Below, piece by piece: positions 3,905-36,972 of a stretch of 64,000 bases of DNA. This DNA is from Escherichia coli. GTDB taxonomy: Bacteria; Pseudomonadota; Gammaproteobacteria; Enterobacterales; Enterobacteriaceae. Below the pieces are notes generated by a model. The model saw nothing but the letters and a program-made list of their open reading frames with translations, searched no databases and was not told the origin of the DNA. Positions within the stretch are counted from its first letter, which is position 1, and the number at the start of each line of letters is the position of its first letter. The position numbers were made by a program, and so were the translations under genes. The stretch lies in assembly GCF_001677475.2 (NCBI RefSeq), contig NZ_CP015229.1. One strand, 5' to 3'.

Positions 3905-6900
3905 TCAGCTGATACTGATACCTGCTGTGGATTTCTTCATCACCACAACCAGCAGATCGCTGATACTGGTTGTTGGTGTCCAGTTATTCGCTCCTGATGA
4001 AGATACGGTGAATGTCAGTGTCAGCGCCCCCTGTCCGGCAGGCATATCTATAACTGAGGAAAATACGCCCTGAGCATCCGTCGTGGACTGATTAAAAATC
4101 TCCTGACCATTGCGGGTCACTCTTAACCGGCAGGTTGAATACCAGTATGACTGTTGGTTATTACTGTTGAAATTCTCATGCTTACCACCACGGAACAACA
4201 CTGGCGGTATCATGACCTGCCGGTCAAATTTCTGATCATCACTGATTCTTACCGTGATGGTGCCACTGGCATAACTGTTCGTGCGGGGGAAAGACTTGCT
4301 GACCGTTTTGACAATATCGCCTTCAATCTGGTTGGCTGACAGTTTCCCCTTAATCTGACAGTTCTCATTTATCGTGACGTTGTTGAGCGTCCCGGAGTTC
4401 GCATTCACGTTACCGCTGATATCGGCATTTTTAGCGGTCAGCTTTCCGTCCGGTGTCAGGGAAAATGCAGGAGGATTACCGCCGCTGGTAATGGTGGGAG
4501 CCGTCAGATATTTCAGGAACACTTCATTCATGAATATCTGATCACCCTGACCAACAAACATCGGTTTTGTGTTGCCATTTGCAGGATTAATCATCGCAAT
4601 CCTGTCTGCCGCCAGCAGCACCTGACTCTGCATGCCGTCGGGGGTGTTCTCAATACCGGCACCGATACCCGCAATATAAAGGCGACCATCCTGCATCTGC
4701 TGCAGTTTCACGGCCCACATACTGTTCAGGTTATTACTGGTGTCCGTCTGAACCTTTTGTATCTGCTGGATGGTGGCCTCCTGATCTCCCAGCTTCTGGT
4801 CCGTTGTCGTCATGATTTCACTGCTTTTTTGATCCACATACTGGCGAACCTGCGCTATCTGGCGTGCATTCTCCTCATTACTCTGACTGACCGTCTGCGT
4901 GAGTTCGCTGCTGACGTTATCCACTCTCTGGCTCACCTGTGATATACCCAGTGACAGCTCATCATTTTTTTTCGCAACCAGCTGCGTGAGGCTGTTTTCT
5001 GTCTCCCCGATTTTTTGGGTCACTTCAGCAATATCACTCTCTATCTGCTGATTGATCTCATCCTCCAGTTGCTCAACTTCACTGCGCAATGCCGAGGCAT
5101 TAATACGATCGTTCAGCTCCTGCCCCAGCAGGGTGCTGTTTATTTTCCCTTCAAAAAAATGGAGATATTTCTCAGCATCGTTACCCGGCTGGCCAACAGC
5201 CTCCACAAATGCCGATTTGCCGACGGTATTCACACTGCGAACGTAAAAATAATAATTATTGCCCGGCTCAATATCCGGTCCGGAGGCTATCCAGTACAGC
5301 GCCGTACCAAGATAGCGGGCTGTGGTTTCAACCTGCCTGATATCGATAATCCGCTTTTCCGATAACCAGAACTCAAACTGTACCGTCGGGTCATATACAG
5401 CCAGTTTCGGGACCGCCGTTATCTGAAAATACCCCGGTATCAGTTCAATAGTGACAGGCGCTACCGGTGCCGCAATCCGGAACGATACCGACGCCGGATC
5501 ACCCTGCTGCCCCCGGGCATTTACCGCCCGGACCGTCAGCATATAACGCCCCAGCGCCAGTTGTCTGAAGCGGTATGTGGTTTCCGTCGTCCGGGCTGTG
5601 CTGACCAGCCGCTCACTGCCGTCGTCCGCTGCCACGGTCAGGCGAAGCATGAAGCTCACGCCCTTCACCACCTTCGGCGTGTCCCAGCGGGCCAGTACCT
5701 GATACTCCCCGCTGTCTGCGGTGACTTCGGCGGTAAGGTGCTGCACCGCTGGCGGCGTGACACCATTCACCGTGCCGCTCTGGTCGCCGTCAAAGTGCGC
5801 CCCGTTATCCACGATGGCTTCTTTTTCCGGTACATGCTGCACGGCAGTGATGGCATACGTGCCGTCGTCGTTCTCACGGATACTCACGCAGCGGAACAGG
5901 CGCTGGCGCAGCGTCGGCAGCTTCAGCCCCCACACGCTGTATTCTGCAACGCCGTCAGGAACACGGCTCACTTTCACCTTCATGCCGTCGGTGACGGACT
6001 GAACCTCCACGCTGACCGGATTGCCATTTCCGTCAACCAGGCTTATCAGAGTGGTGCCGGAGGATGGCAGCGTGATTTCACGGTCGAGCGTCAGCGTCCG
6101 GGTCTGGCTGTTCACCGCCAGCACGCGACCACCGATGCTGATACCCGCATAGTCATCATCGCAGATTTCAATGATATCGCCCGGCACATGGCGAAGCCCT
6201 TCGGCACCCACGCTGAAGTCCACGGTCTGCGTTTCCAGCAGTTCCGTTTTAATCAGCCACAGCCCGGCGCGGTGCGCCTGCCCCCGGCTGGTACAGCCAA
6301 AGGCATCCATCTTCGTGACGTTACGACCGTAACGGGCAATGGCCTGCGTGTCCTCCACAAGCTCTGTTGCCGTCTCCCAGCCGTTGTCCGGGTCAATCCA
6401 GTTCACCTCAACGGCATTATGGCGGTCCTTCAGGGCGCTGAAGCTGTAGCGGAACGGCGCGCCGTCATCCGGCATCACCACATTACTGCGGTTATAGGTC
6501 CACACCTTATCCGACGGCCGGTCCTGCACGAACGTCAGCGTCTGCCCGTTCCATACCGGCATACAGCGCATCGCCGAGCAGAAATCACTGAGCACATCCC
6601 ACGCCTTACGCTGTGTTGTCAGGTAAGCATTACAGGTGATGCGCGGCTCCGTGCCGCCAAAGCCGTCCGGCACTGACTGGTCGCAGTACTGGCCGATGAC
6701 ATACAGCGCCCATTTATCCACATCCGCCGCACCAAGACGTTTCCCCATGCCGTAGCGCGGATGGGTCAGCATATCCCACAGACACCAGGCCATGTTGTTG
6801 CTGTATGCCGGTTTAAACGTTCCGTCCCAGATACTGCTGTATTGCCGCGTCTGCGGGTTATAGTTCGACGGCACCTGCAGAATGCGCCCGCGAAGATGAT

Positions 6901-33050: not shown

Positions 33051-33078
33051 CGCAATAAAAAACCCGCCGAAGCGGGTT
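33051..33078 (-). terminator. Rho-independent terminator downstream of hok
   Basis: Minus strand AACCCGCUUCGGCGGGUU followed by UUUUUAUU. Confidence 0.65.
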
Positions 33079-33148
33079 AAGTGCGGGCGCGTTGAGGATG
33101 CCTGACACATCAGAGGTGGCGAGGGATTTCTCCCTCGCCAGGTCACTC

Positions 33149-33304
33149 TTACTCCTCAGATTCGTAAGCTGTGAAGACAGCGACCTCCGTCTGGCCGGTT
33201 CGGATTCGCACCTCGCAGAGGTCTTTCCTCGTTACCAGTGCCGTCACTATGACGGTTAAACAGATGACGATCAGGGCGATTAACATCGCCTTTTGCTGCT
33301 TCAT
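33149..33304 (-). CDS. hokD: Hok/Gef-family membrane toxin (HokD/RelF-like)
   Basis: MKQQKAMLIALIVICLTVIVTALVTRKDLCEVRIRTGQTEVAVFTAYESEE, near-identical to E. coli HokD; longer overlapping in-frame ORF is mok-like. Confidence 0.9.
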   Translation of the reverse strand: MKQQKAMLIALIVICLTVIVTALVTRKDLCEVRIRTGQTEVAVFTAYESEE

Positions 33305-33594
33305 AGCCTGCTTCTCCTTGCCTTTCGGCACGTAAGAGGCTAACCTACATGTGCAAAGCATGAAATTGGCCTCAGATTAATGTTAAGCGTCTTGCCGGAC
33401 GCGTAATGTTAACTGGGGCTTTTCTCTATCTGCCGTTGGTGTTCATGCCCGAGGCAGATAGCCTCAAGCACCCGCTGCAATTCTACTTAACTCTCCTTTT
33501 CCCGCAAACCGTTTTTATCCCCAGCGGCAAATCGAATACACCACCAGCGCCACCGCAAGTGCAATTCCTACCGTTGTGAATGCTTCAGGCCAGG

Positions 33595-34017
33595 TCATCG
33601 ATTCACCTCCTGCTCAATATTTTTAAGGTCATTTTCCGCATACAGTATTGCTGTCCTGGCTGCTCGTAACCGGGCTTTGGCATTTTTCTCTTCACGTTCA
33701 AGTTTTTCCACAGCTTCACGAAGAGCATCCCGCTTTGCATAGAGTGATTTAATCTCAGACACTATGTTTTCACCGTTTCTCGCACGGTCGAGAACAAGCT
33801 CGAACGGATCTAAAGCCAATCCGCATCGGTTACAGGTAATCGTACGATTCACTTCTGAAATTGTTGTACGGATATGCTGACAGCATTTTTGCTCGCCGCT
33901 TTTTCTGTCGGTTATCACAACGTTGAGAAGCCCTTCTTCCTCTGATTTTGGTTGCACAAGGGTGATAACATTGTCGATGTCATTTTTCATTAGCCCCCCA
34001 CTCTTGTGGTGATTCAT
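33595..34017 (-). CDS. Hypothetical Zn-ribbon plus coiled-coil protein
   Basis: 140 aa; CCQH...CNRCG Cys pairs and C-terminal coiled coil (LREAVEKLEREEKNAKARLRAAR); start overlaps upstream stop (ATGA). Confidence 0.45.
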   Translation of the reverse strand: MNHHKSGGLMKNDIDNVITLVQPKSEEEGLLNVVITDRKSGEQKCCQHIRTTISEVNRTITCNRCGLALDPFELVLDRARNGENIVSEIKSLYAKRDALREAVEKLEREEKNAKARLRAARTAILYAENDLKNIEQEVNR

Positions 34018-34190
34018 TCATCACCCCACTCATCACAATATGCTTCGACAGGTGTTTTTCCTGCTTCGTAGTCATCACGCCAGGCTTCAGCATCAACAGC
34101 ACTTCCACCACGTAACTCTGCATAGTCCATTAACAGTTCATGCCATTCTTCAAAACTGACGTTGTATTTAGTTGAACCAAAATCAGCCAT
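34014..34190 (-). CDS. Hypothetical small acidic protein (58 aa), not in ORF track
   Basis: MADFGSTKYNVSFEEWHELLMDYAELRGGSAVDAEAWRDDYEAGKTPVEAYCDEWGDE; coupled to flanking genes. Confidence 0.4.
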   Translation of the reverse strand: MADFGSTKYNVSFEEWHELLMDYAELRGGSAVDAEAWRDDYEAGKTPVEAYCDEWGDE

Positions 34191-34365
34191 TTTGTTCTTC
34201 CTCTTCGTCTTTTATTGCGTGATATGAGTAATTGCAGTAGTTAAAGAAAATTTCTTTTGCTTCATCATGAATTTCATCAGGTGTTGCGTCATCGCCCACT
34301 TCGAATACATCCTCAAAATCTCCACCAGCTATTCCCGTTTCAATAATTATTTTGAACTTTCGCAT
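34183..34365 (-). CDS. Hypothetical small acidic protein
   Basis: 60 aa from MRKFKIIIETGIAGGDFEDVFEV...; hairpin CCGCCCTTTCGGGCGG immediately 5' of start. Confidence 0.4.
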   Translation of the reverse strand: MRKFKIIIETGIAGGDFEDVFEVGDDATPDEIHDEAKEIFFNYCNYSYHAIKDEEEEQNG

Positions 34366-34509
34366 TTCACTACCGCCCTTTCGGGCGGCCTCCTGATGAT
34401 TTGAGAGTGCAAAAATCACTCCGGTTAAGGATTAAATTTTATTTACAGAACTGAATTTAATTATTCAGATATACGTATCTGTAACCCTACGAACCTACTC
34501 ACTGGATGC

Positions 34510-34983
34510 CTATTTCATAAAAATAATCCAGTGAGTTTTATCGTTTTTTCCTGTTCGTTGACCGATAACAGGTTTTCTGTCGGTCAGTGCCAATATCTGG
34601 CGAACAGGTATTTGCGTTTCATTCCATTTGAAAATCAGAACGCCGTATGGCTGCAACACACGAAAGGCTTCTTTAAATCCCTGCCGCAAATCATCACGCC
34701 AGGTATCTTTATTTAGCCGTCCATATTTCTTTCCCATCCAGGCGTTATCACCAACACGCTCAAGATGCGGAGGGTCGAATACAACCATCGAAAAAGATGC
34801 GTCTGCAAATGGTAGTGCACGAAAATCTGCTATCAGGTCAGGGCTAATTATCAGGCGTCGTCCATCACATAATGTGTGCTCTTCTTTTCTGATATCGCTA
34901 AATATCGCCCGGTCGTCATTCTTATCGAACCAGAACATACGACTACCACAGGACATATCAAGAATGGTTGCCGATTCACTCAC
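34510..34983 (-). CDS. Putative SAM-dependent (DNA) methyltransferase
   Basis: 157 aa; motif I-like ILDMSCGSRMFW and motif IV-like MVVFDPPH. Confidence 0.5.
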   Translation of the reverse strand: MSESATILDMSCGSRMFWFDKNDDRAIFSDIRKEEHTLCDGRRLIISPDLIADFRALPFADASFSMVVFDPPHLERVGDNAWMGKKYGRLNKDTWRDDLRQGFKEAFRVLQPYGVLIFKWNETQIPVRQILALTDRKPVIGQRTGKNDKTHWIIFMK

Positions 34984-35510: not shown

Positions 35511-36272
35511 TCACTTCACATCCTCTCTGGAACAATTCATCTGCCGTATAATATCCCGGTACTTGTTCAGCTCCCGCAGCGCGGCGCAGACACGCTCCCA
35601 CTTCTGGACATGGCTTTTCGCCCGACGCAATTCGCGGTTTGCTATATGCAGCGATGGTAAAATCAGGTCATCCCCTTGCGTTTCGGTGAGCGATGGTAAC
35701 GACTGCACCATGTCCGCCACAGTTTCTGTTTTAATATCTTCCTGTGTTGCAGCTTCCTGTACCGGTAACGCAACACCGGCTGGCTGAGGAAAGGCTTTAC
35801 CATCGGTTTCCGCTACCGATGCGGCTTTCAGCTCTGCTGGTAAATTATCTCCCGGCATGCAGTAGCGAAATTTACCGTTCTGGTTTACGCGTGCCAGCCG
35901 CCCCGTTGCGGTTACTACTGCCAGCGTGGAAGCAACCTTGCGAGTGCTGACACAGAACTTACCCGCCAGTTCCTCACACGTTTTAGCTCCCTCCTGACCG
36001 ATAAACTCAATCATCATGTCAGCGGTAACTTTTCGTTCGACCGCCCTGGTCAGCACATCCGGTACTTCAGATTGTGCTGGCTGCTCTTCGGTTACCCCGG
36101 ATTCACCTTCGCCAGCCAGAAACCAGGTGTGACCCGTTTTATCAACGACGCCATTTCTTTTCAGTTCCCACAGCTCGTTCAGCACTTCTTCACGACTGAT
36201 ATCAAGTCGCGCAGCCAGTTCTGTCGACGTGGCTTTCCCCATTGCTTTCAGTGCGTCAAAAACAGTCTCCAT
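35511..36272 (-). CDS. Hypothetical phage protein (DUF1627-like), N-terminal winged-helix
   Basis: 253 aa from [43 protein letters not shown]. Confidence 0.5.
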
Positions 36273-36306
36273 TAAAATTTCCTCCCGGTAAAAATCACTT
36301 CTCAAC

Positions 36307-36972
36307 TCAAACAAAACCAGCCGTTTTCCGGCGTTCATACTCCTGTTTCAGCAACTCAATTGGCGTTGGTCCCGACGGGCGTTTGGGTGCCGCCAGTTGT
36401 CGCCGGACTGGCGGAATGCTCAGGCCATTACCAACATGCTTTGCCCATTTCGTCAGTTGCCGTTCTGCAAGCCGTTTTAACTCCCCTTCGGTCATCTGGC
36501 GCTCAATCCCCTTTGAACGCATCTCGAGGCAAATGTGATACAGCACAGGCTGAGACCACGGGTACTTATCACTTCCGTCGTATCGCCAGGACTCATTGCG
36601 CCAGCGGCGGTACTCCTCCATCACAGCATCCACCGTCAGACCGAATGGATTGGCTCCGCTTTCCGAAATCAGTGCCACAAACTCAGCCAGGTCCGGAGGC
36701 CATGTTTCACCCGCCCGGCAGCGGTCCATGCACTGGCGGCAGACCTGCCGGATTTGCTGCTCAGTCATCGCGCCAATCTGTGCAATCCAGAGCTTCGAAG
36801 GTGCGGCCCCGTTCTTCCGGGGCCAGCGGTTCGAATAAACCTCCCCCATGAGTTCCCACAGCTTCCAGGCCGTTTCCGTCGCTGATAAATCCGTTTTCAC
36901 GTTCCCACTGCTCACGTGCTGCCCGAATTTCCTGAACTGCCCGTGATGCGGTGCCACCTGGTGCTGCTGCAT
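36307..36972 (-). CDS. Replication protein P-like helicase loader (true start probably internal, ~36768)
   Basis: C-terminal half resembles lambda P ([16 protein letters not shown] ; [14 protein letters not shown]...IPPV); 5' part overlaps the O-like gene. Confidence 0.6.

Follow-up and report, generated by a model that had tools for sequence, protein, structure and literature searches.

Two separately distributed accessory modules, a pair of small acidic protein genes and a putative zinc-ribbon coiled-coil gene, adjoin in the nin-equivalent region of a Qin-like Escherichia coli prophage

What do three small open reading frames (ORFs) packed between the replication genes and the antiterminator gene Q of a prophage encode, and do they belong together? 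The question is raised by a 64,000-nucleotide (nt) stretch of Escherichia coli DNA (contig NZ_CP015229.1 of assembly GCF_001677475.2; hereafter, the window), in which the ORFs, designated g60, g58 and g131, follow one another on the minus strand of a Qin-like prophage (Table 1). The initial annotation described them as one chain of translationally coupled genes in a phage nin region, encoding acidic proteins of 60 and 58 amino acids (aa) and a 140-aa zinc-ribbon coiled-coil protein, and considered DNA mimicry or anti-defense functions for the acidic members. The three same-strand ORFs (60, 58 and 140 aa) are present as described, as is the ATGA junction at 34014-34017, where the stop codon of g58 overlaps an in-frame ATG at 34017. 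The two small proteins are strongly acidic (g60: isoelectric point (pI) 4.14, net charge -12, 17 acidic versus 5 basic residues; g58: pI 4.05, net charge -12, 16 acidic versus 4 basic residues). By contrast, g131 is not acidic (pI 6.6-7.7), and its pI of 6.6 places it outside the class of strongly acidic small proteins to which g60 and g58 belong. As judged from genome comparisons, however, the trio is comprised of two modules and is not a single conserved unit.

The distribution of the two gene junctions contradicts the idea of one chain. A query consisting of g60 and g58 was covered to at least 80% in 1,748 of 5,426 complete E. coli genomes (~32%), whereas a query consisting of g58 and g131 was covered to this extent in only 4 of them. 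The same picture emerges from 80 viral contigs of IMG/VR (L029-L108), which are close relatives (g58 is 95-100% identical) and inform on modularity rather than on deep co-evolution. In 79 of these contigs g60 lies directly upstream of g58, and the same 8-nt overlap was found in every locus whose offsets were inspected. The gene that follows g58 is a 171-aa protein starting with MSEINY in 71 contigs, with an ATGA overlap in 62, and is g131 in 4 and an Ead/Ea22-like protein in 3. Since the ATGA joins g58 to differing downstream genes, it is a feature of the g58 module, and in the window it happens to be in frame with g131. The genomic position of the pair varies as well: ArgO145 and Stx2a phages carry it in the early-left Ead/Ea22 region, and the prophage of the window, 606R7 and PhiR42_1 carry it in the nin region. 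Beyond the close relatives the pair splits, such that g58 accompanies DUF1187 in IncI2 plasmids, again with an 8-nt overlap, and g60 occurs without g58 in Enterococcus and Phapecoctavirus phages. Homologs of g131 are found after an Ead/Ea22-like gene and before sokW/hokW in 933W, among small genes near a Dam-type methylase in a Salmonella prophage, and between gam and gemA/mor in Mu-like prophages. As a separate observation, E. coli GB089, whose prophage is, like those of three further genomes, 99.9% identical to this stretch of the window, contains a second g60-g58 cassette (chromosome 1484056-1484407; 99.7% identical) in another prophage, and up to 4 copies of the cassette per genome are found across E. 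coli.

A looser association links the pair to the protein family of g131. Of the 80 viral contigs, 60 contain a member of the g131/gp17 zinc-ribbon coiled-coil superfamily on the same strand at a distance of no more than 3 kb. Genes of the gp17 type (118-145 aa, 25% identical to g131, with the ERNAKARIR motif shared; also at 4173-4529 of locus L002) are found on the upstream side of the g60-g58 pair in at least 50 contigs, immediately next to g60 wherever offsets were inspected, and a superfamily gene lies downstream of g58 in 8. The occurrence of two zinc-ribbon subfamilies at two positions suggests a functional link, although the association could also reflect shared descent together with one recombination event.

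Table 1. Features of the three genes and their flanks (positions in the window)
Feature	Position	Strand	Evidence or remark
g60, 60-aa acidic protein, Pfam DUF7167 / PHROG 1997	34183..34365	minus	Pfam E 2.4e-12; PHROG 1997 E 1.4e-29
Putative structured ribosome-binding site of g60	34372..34394	minus	AGGAGG 34394-34389, 7-bp hairpin with GAAA loop 34389-34372, 6 nt, ATG 34365
g58, 58-aa acidic protein, PHROG 519	34014..34190	minus	PHROG 519 E 1.8e-22; no Pfam match
GGGGGG Shine-Dalgarno sequence of g131	33994..33999	minus	3 nt (CTA) before ATG 33990; 5' module edge
g131, predicted zinc-ribbon and coiled-coil protein, PHROG 1621	33595..33990	minus	E 1.4e-48; PGAP 131 aa
Predicted zinc-ribbon segment, residues 37-60 of the 131-aa protein	33811..33882	minus	Invariant C37, H39, C53, C56 (38-sequence alignment)
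Predicted single 69-residue helix, residues 62-130	33601..33807	minus	AlphaFold2 pLDDT 84-96
Orphan class I SAM-dependent methyltransferase, 157 aa, DPPH motif	34510..34983	minus	PGAP; upstream of g60
hokD/mok/sok type I toxin-antitoxin locus	33149..33473	minus	Rfam sok 112.8 bits, E 7e-26; PGAP hokD; downstream of g131

By the same kind of comparison, all three ORFs are real genes under purifying selection, because their ratios of nonsynonymous to synonymous substitution rates (dN/dS) are low and their homologs in unrelated phages are 35-60% identical. Where synonymous sites were not saturated, dN/dS amounted to 0.07 for g60 against ArgO145, to 0.14 and 0.06 for g58 against ArgO145 and the IncI2 plasmids, respectively, and to 0.1-0.3 for g131. 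The product of g60 passes the gathering score of DUF7167 (PF23768; 47.2 versus 24.4 bits), with residues 2-53 aligned to positions 1-60 of the 60-position profile, and PGAP/RefSeq labels the identical protein “DUF7167 family protein.” This membership explains nothing, since the family has no known function. In the AlphaFold2 (AF2) model, g60 is predicted to form a β-hairpin (strands 2-9 and 16-23) and a helix (29-43) followed by a disordered acidic tail, with predicted local distance difference test (pLDDT) values of 66-89, and its homologs carry net charges of -11 to -16.

The g58 protein aligns to the C-terminal half only of PHROG 519 (positions 76-137 of 143) and is predicted by AF2 to be a three-helix bundle (helices 13-26, 34-42 and 47-55; pLDDT >90). 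An exhaustive profile search recovered 120 clusters at E ≤ 1e-3 among 1.84 billion representatives; nearly all of these proteins are stand-alone and 48-66 aa long, with a median net charge of -7 and the signature T-x5-F-x2-W ... A-W-x2-D-Y-x2-G-x-T-P-x-E-A-W. In a few cases the g58 domain is fused to the C-terminus of a Mu GemA-family protein or to DUF1187 (P0274, P0243), as expected for an adaptor or binding module. Another fusion partner, in the 374-aa protein P0293, was read as ParB-like, but this reading has no Pfam support and was not relied on. The two small proteins were also modeled together, as one artificial fusion of g60, a 25-residue Gly/Ser linker and g58. As the rows of the fusion alignment are chimeras of unrelated homologs of each half, only the covariation within each domain is informative.

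The g60-g58 cassette appears to be equipped with its own translation signals. In the leader of g60, the Shine-Dalgarno (SD) sequence is separated from the AUG by 23 nt in linear distance, which would be reduced to ~6 nt if the intervening hairpin (-14.4 kcal/mol) forms; the 91-nt leader as a whole folds with a z of -2.3 against shuffles. The hairpin may therefore act as a split SD, resembling the split ribosome-binding sites that are known for genes 38 and 25 of phage T4. An identical SD hairpin is present in phage ArgO145, where the DNA further upstream differs, and the element thus belongs to the g60-g58 cassette. Within the cassette, the genes overlap by 8 nt (ATGGCTGA), and a purine tract (GAGGAAGA) precedes the start of g58. 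Translational coupling, which had been proposed for the whole trio, is therefore supported at the g60/g58 junction by this overlap, and it fares less well at the next junction, where the family start of the third gene leaves a spacer.

The third ORF can begin at either of two in-frame ATG codons, at 34017 (140 aa, 34017..33595) or at 33990 (131 aa). The PHROG 1621 match spans residues 10-139 of the 140-aa ORF on positions 5-134 of the 134-position profile, and most of the 105 database homologs, including nearly all full-length ones, are 128-135 aa long and start at the methionine equivalent to that at 33990. An ATGA start at 34017 would add 9 non-conserved residues. In addition, a megablast match to another context (E. 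coli O103 RM8385, with DUF551 upstream) stops exactly at 33999, the outer edge of the G-rich SD sequence. From these alignments the family start of g131 is placed at ATG 33990, although a 140-aa isoform is possible, and with this start the coupling between g58 and g131 has to span a 23-nt spacer.

The zinc ribbon and the coiled coil that had been noticed in this protein both stand in the AF2 model, with a length of 131 rather than 140 aa and with predicted ligands of the pattern C-x-H...C-x2-C in place of CxxH; the first Cys of the “CC” pair is variable. In the model, which was built from a 38-sequence alignment (mean pLDDT 81; the N-terminus is poorly ordered), two short β-hairpins at 42-45 and 50-53 bear C37-x-H39 and C53-x2-C56. 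Four conserved ligands on two β-hairpins are predicted, as in a zinc ribbon, although matches to the TFIIB zinc-ribbon Pfam family are weak (9 of 38 members; best E 1.6e-4, under the gathering score). TFIIB-type ribbons share the two β-hairpins and four metal ligands with g131; they differ by having C4 ligands instead of CxH...CxxC and by lacking the 69-residue coiled coil, and all the matches are sub-threshold. The long predicted helix has one continuous heptad register in which 15 of 20 a/d positions are hydrophobic, so that g131 is modeled as a coiled-coil protein and a dimer or oligomer would be expected.

The most conserved part of g131 is the C-terminal portion of this helix. Within residues 93-124 (33714-33619), 26 of 32 positions are at least 90% conserved, compared with 50-70% in the rest of the protein, and the segment reads A/S-V-x-x-L-E-R-E-E-K-N-A-K-A-R-L-R-x-A-R-T-A-I-L-F/Y-A-E-N-D-L-K-N. 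It includes the basic stretch EKNAKARLRxAR (5 basic residues per 11), and the core E-[KR]-N-A-K-A-R-[LI]-R is kept even in the gp17 subfamily. Synonymous sites in this segment are saturated against Salmonella (proportion of synonymous differences (pS) 0.87) and substantially diverged against the Mu-like homologs (pS 0.44), with proportions of nonsynonymous differences of 0.10-0.16, which indicates that the constraint acts at the protein level. A constraint at the DNA level, for example by upstream elements of hok/sok, is ruled out by the saturation of synonymous sites against the Salmonella and Mu-like homologs. Since the solvent-facing positions are fixed along with the a/d positions, and synonymous sites are saturated, we infer from these alignments that the C-terminal helix contacts a conserved partner, nucleic acid or host protein, rather than serving in self-association alone. 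Part of the C-terminal similarity to 933W has another origin. DNA identity to this phage stays at 53-67% through the first 300 nt of g131, climbs to 88% in the final 102 nt and reaches 99% in the sok leader; this jump points to a recombination joint near 33696. Recombination between alleles may make use of the conserved C-terminal coding segment as a linker.

Homologs of all three proteins are widespread in mobile elements. Those of g60 are 35-46% identical in Klebsiella, Enterococcus (Herelleviridae), Phapecoctavirus and Pseudomonas phages, and they also occur in Stx phages; in total, 114 phage and 19 plasmid records were found. Homologs of g58 at 45-59% identity are present in Ackermannviridae (52-59%), phiKDA1 (Autographiviridae) and Arya, and the family is represented in 198 phage and 554 plasmid records. 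Of these plasmids, 516 are predicted to be conjugative, most of them IncI2 plasmids of ~60 kb that include one carrier of mcr-1.1. In large Klebsiella and Aeromonas plasmids, g58 homologs lie within long same-strand arrays of tiny ORFs, and the Aeromonas plasmid pAeme3 encodes the identical protein twice (L028 3703-3861 and 4998-5156). The g131 family (66 phage and 21 plasmid records) includes homologs 41-62% identical in the 933W/Sakai Stx phages and in Tyrion, Hafnia, Cronobacter and Providencia phages; 20 of the 21 plasmids are non-mobilizable and possibly represent phage-plasmids or misassigned prophage DNA. A close known counterpart of g131 is ST933Wp77 of 933W, which is 58% identical over the full 131 aa, has the same CxH...CxxC pattern and invariant C-terminal helix, and is likewise a neighbor of hok/sok. 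It differs in following an Ead/Ea22-like gene instead of the acidic pair, and it too is a hypothetical protein.

Searches for function were uninformative throughout. Pfam, NCBIfam, PADLOC and PHROGs returned only DUF or unknown-function families for the trio, and neither these searches nor PDB sequence searches (Pfam, NCBIfam, PADLOC and PDB) revealed an enzymatic or catalytic signature for any of the three. The initial annotation had recognized none of the proteins, and this agrees with the result that they belong solely to catalogued families of unknown function; no match was obtained to characterized nin proteins, an outcome named in advance as one that would count against an anti-defense role. 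The Pfam scan of the trio contained none of the Nin families (NinA-NinH, Ren, Rap, Orf) and no match to Ead_Ea22 (PF13935), and in the tblastn searches of phages no lambda record stood in the rows listed or in the tallies by organism (the full match lists were not inspected). PADLOC matches to Cas12f and LmuB (E 1e-3 to 4e-2) represent generic zinc-ribbon/coiled-coil noise. Searches of the PDB with single sequences and profiles yielded nothing meaningful, the matches to the designed repeat protein dTor being spurious and due to a 14-residue repeat. With Foldseek against the PDB, the best match of g131 was the TFIIB N-terminal domain, a zinc ribbon (E 0.8), and the BFVD fold search returned solely uncharacterized phage proteins, including those of Lactococcus and Streptomyces phages. 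A literature search on the identifiers and peptide sequences of the three proteins and their families retrieved nothing beyond an in-silico anti-CRISPR (Acr) flag on PHROG 519. Two supposed relatives were rejected: the 67-aa gene after the Mu-like g131 homolog is hydrophobic, probably encodes a membrane protein and is not related to g58, and g131 is not a relative of Ea22, as which one phage record labels its neighbor (hhalign probability 0.7% against the 933W and 0.1% against the ArgO145 Ead/Ea22-like proteins). The cryptic prophages Rac and Qin of K-12 contain no homolog of g60, g58 or g131, and the idea of named homologs there was dropped.

On this basis we tentatively favor, at somewhat below even chances, the view that the trio encodes non-essential early host-interference proteins that act by stoichiometric binding. 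The locus would represent the junction of two independently mobile accessory modules within a delayed-early operon of a Qin-like lambdoid prophage. The first would be a self-contained cassette, in which the SD hairpin is followed by the DUF7167 and PHROG 519 genes, these two being coupled by the 8-nt overlap, and the terminal ATGA of g58 would couple it to whichever gene follows. The second would consist of the PHROG 1621 gene with its own SD sequence, a gene that is usually a neighbor of hok/sok or part of a Mu-like early region. During early lytic development, the proteins may bind their targets stoichiometrically: the acidic miniproteins would inhibit, or act as decoys for, basic proteins that bind nucleic acids (nuclease, restriction, CRISPR or nucleoid proteins) and belong either to the host or to rival elements, and g131 would act as a coiled-coil dimer or oligomer whose invariant basic C-terminal helix docks on a conserved partner, nucleic acid or host protein. 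A role as binders is favored because no catalytic signature was found and because their size and fold are typical of binders, and the broad distribution in mobile elements is what a function directed by the element against its host would lead one to expect. From these features we infer both a mode of action by binding or inhibition and the class of target. The conserved acidity of both small families and the adjacent orphan methyltransferase were also counted in favor.

Several observations weigh against host interference by binding. No homology connects any of the trio proteins with a target, and the joint model of g60 and g58, being an artificial fusion with chimeric rows, is silent on their mutual interaction. 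The acidity itself is weak evidence, because phage early regions often encode small acidic proteins, irrespective of what these do. Two contexts of g58 also count against it: in Ackermannviridae the g58 homolog follows the major capsid gene, probably in the late region, and in IncI2 plasmids it resides in a CaiF/GrlA-DUF1187-g58-SPFH-NfeD operon that adjoins type IV secretion system genes, ~15 kb from mobC. Given that distance from mobC and those neighbors, a location of the IncI2 g58 in the plasmid leading region is not supported. No anti-CRISPR-associated (Aca) gene of the helix-turn-helix (HTH) or ribbon-helix-helix (RHH) type adjoins the cassette, whose neighbors are the methyltransferase upstream and the zinc-ribbon protein downstream. 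Finally, the 144-bp spacer in front of g60 yielded no promoter-like site, and transcription is therefore assumed to read through from upstream.

A somewhat unlikely alternative, but the one that survives best, is that the genes serve phage-internal developmental functions (lysis-lysogeny, replication or recombination), as the exo-xis/ea ORFs and Ea22 of lambda do, and that g131 and gp17 are “Aca-like” DNA-binding regulators of the acidic cassette. The niche is the same, since the g60-g58 pair is normally located among Ead/Ea22-like genes, and the MSEINY start of the gene to which g58 is usually ATGA-coupled is typical of the Ead/Ea22-like family; however, no trio protein is homologous to Ead/Ea22, and for g131 hhalign gave less than 1%. 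A regulatory role would account for a zinc-ribbon superfamily gene near the pair in 60 of 80 contigs, with two subfamilies flanking either side, and the E-[KR]-N-A-K-A-R-[LI]-R motif with 5 basic residues within 11, common even to the distant subfamily, would suit a DNA-binding helix. Regulators of the Aca type need not contain an HTH, with zinc fingers left as an open possibility, according to a 2026 preprint, which shows that non-HTH Aca regulators exist (10.64898/2026.07.27.740549). On the other side, the 80 contigs are such close relatives (95-100% in g58) that they may carry one inherited block and one recombination event, and the acidic pair does not accompany g131 in 933W, Salmonella and Mu-like prophages. 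It is also hard to square an invariant DNA-reading helix across unrelated regulatory regions with operator-specific binding, and no operator-like motif was found to recur among the loci.

It is unlikely, though conceivable, that g60-g58 represents an as yet unrecognized two-component anti-defense or host-takeover module, with g131 or gp17 as its non-HTH regulator of a zinc-ribbon “Aca-like” class, its co-factor or a third inhibitor. The cassette is present in about one third of E. coli genomes, its second gene also in mcr-1-type IncI2 conjugative plasmids and virulent Ackermannviridae, and a member of the g131/gp17 superfamily flanks it in 75% of the contigs examined. The arrangement recalls acr-aca operons, which are likewise short, combine genes for small acidic proteins with a terminal gene whose product would bind nucleic acid, and occur on many mobile elements. 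They differ in that their Aca proteins are of the HTH or RHH type, whereas here the candidate regulator is a zinc-ribbon coiled-coil protein, and the small proteins have no similarity to known Acrs.

Quite unlikely is the idea that g60 and/or g58 mimic DNA as Ocr, ArdA or T7 gp5.9 do, and would thereby fill the groove with which type I restriction enzymes, RecBCD or a CRISPR effector bind DNA, because this reading has no positive structural or homology support. The resemblance to T7 Ocr, ArdA, T7 gp5.9 and phi29 p56 is one of general properties: small size, a pI of ~4, location in early or accessory regions and absence of an enzymatic motif. A pI of ~4.1 with a net charge of -12 in 58-60 residues, conserved as acidity in both families, would fit such a mimic. 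Some gene contexts also point this way. In phiKDA1 the g58 homolog lies between the genes for DNA polymerase and a 5'-3' exonuclease, a position like that of genes 5.5-5.9 on the T7 gene map, in Klebsiella phage VLCpiS11a the g60 homolog overlaps the start of an exonuclease gene, and in the window an orphan DPPH methyltransferase is next door. The g58 family is present in phages of both temperate and virulent lifestyle as well as in 516 conjugative plasmids, which would be compatible with anti-defense in general. In Kuttervirus genomes, PHROG 519 was flagged as a candidate Acr by the machine-learning predictor PaCRISPR, a prediction only (PMC9409062), but machine-learning Acr calls favor any small acidic protein. 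No resemblance of g60 and g58 in sequence or fold to Ocr, ArdA, gp5.9, Arn, p56, any other solved DNA mimic or any Acr in the PDB was detected. Moreover, the conserved residues of g58 are core aromatics and the DY..G.TP turn rather than a fixed array of carboxylates, and both proteins are predicted to be compact, monomer-sized domains.

Very unlikely, in our view, is a role as host-killing or growth-arrest factors comparable to Kil and DicB, in which the coiled-coil protein might target the divisome or replisome. It is suggested by the proximity of g131 to hok/sok here, in 933W and in 606R7, by the presence of dicB in the same prophage, and by the location of g131 in the semi-essential early region of Mu-like prophages, the region of Mu in which kil-type functions reside. 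Weak profile matches of the coiled coil to DivIVA- and EzrA-type coiled coils (E 0.02-3) are generic noise, however, none of the proteins is a homolog of Kil, DicB or SulA-like inhibitors, and about one third of E. coli genomes carry the cassette with no antidote gene beside it, which speaks against strong toxicity. The possibility that the ORFs lack a function, as remnants within a decaying prophage, or are artefacts of annotation, to which a frameshifted DUF1627 gene and a truncated methylase pseudogene nearby might point, is effectively excluded by the sequence evidence of strong purifying selection on all three genes, homologs 35-60% identical in virulent phages, plasmids and other genera, confident predicted folds and good SD sequences.

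Identical proteins are already in RefSeq, and the trio consists of catalogued families of mosaic lambdoid-prophage accessory genes, not of a new kind of system. What has been gained are gene starts, module boundaries, predicted folds, the invariant C-terminal helix of g131 and the family distributions, which make the three genes well-defined candidates. For g60, the predicted fold, the structured ribosome-binding site, the almost constant partnership with PHROG 519 among E. coli prophages and the presence in phages of Gram-positive hosts are new. If the proteins do inhibit a defense system or a host nucleic-acid enzyme, the reach would be wide: the pair is carried by about one third of sequenced E. 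coli, and the g58 family is present on IncI2 plasmids, by which mcr-1 is spread, and in Ackermannviridae phages that are therapeutic candidates.

The surroundings of the trio bear out its placement in the nin region. In GB089 the annotated order runs from Cro/CI-type regulators through a YdaT-like protein, a DnaT-like protein, replication protein P, a frameshifted DUF1627 gene, a DNA-binding (HTH) protein, a hypothetical protein and a class I SAM (S-adenosylmethionine) methyltransferase to the trio, there annotated as DUF7167 and hypothetical proteins of 58 and 131 aa; hokD, two hypothetical proteins, DUF968, RusA and antiterminator Q follow. The trio, lying between P and Q, occupies the nin-equivalent, delayed-early region, and the prophage is a full-length relative of the cryptic Qin of K-12 (dicA/dicC, ydfA/B, dicB, hokD, ydfU, Q). 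In K-12 Qin itself, relBE occupies the region upstream of hokD. The methyltransferase has weak Methyltransf_11/25 matches, and its VVFDPPH motif was read off the translation. The nearest HTH gene (85 aa, Sigma70_r4_2/HTH_23) is two genes further upstream. A hok/sok module also follows the g131 homologs in 933W (sokW/hokW after ST933Wp77) and in 606R7 (“host killer protein”).

The interval from the methyltransferase gene to hok was scanned and yielded no σ70-like promoter and no intrinsic terminator. A perfect 11-bp inverted repeat with an 18-nt loop (34497-34507 / 34526-34536) straddles the methyltransferase stop codon (34510), but it is not a canonical terminator because no T-run follows it, and small palindromes (CAGATACGTATATCTG and TGAATAATTAAATTCA) lie within the 144-bp spacer before g60. 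Just downstream of hokD, a stretch on the minus strand (33057-33138) resembles IsrK, an Hfq-binding small RNA of Salmonella, although the match is sub-threshold (31.3 bits versus an Rfam gathering score of 50; E 6e-4); it ends in a terminator-like hairpin with a T-run (33061-33078, minus strand). Signs of decay in the prophage include the DUF1627 gene, marked as frameshifted by RefSeq (window 35511-36338), and a partial DNA-methyltransferase pseudogene near a tRNA-Gly/tRNA-Thr pair (L001 4087-4485). Between Q and the lysis genes, the same prophage carries cargo genes for IraM, a TerB-family protein and a CPBP-family protein.

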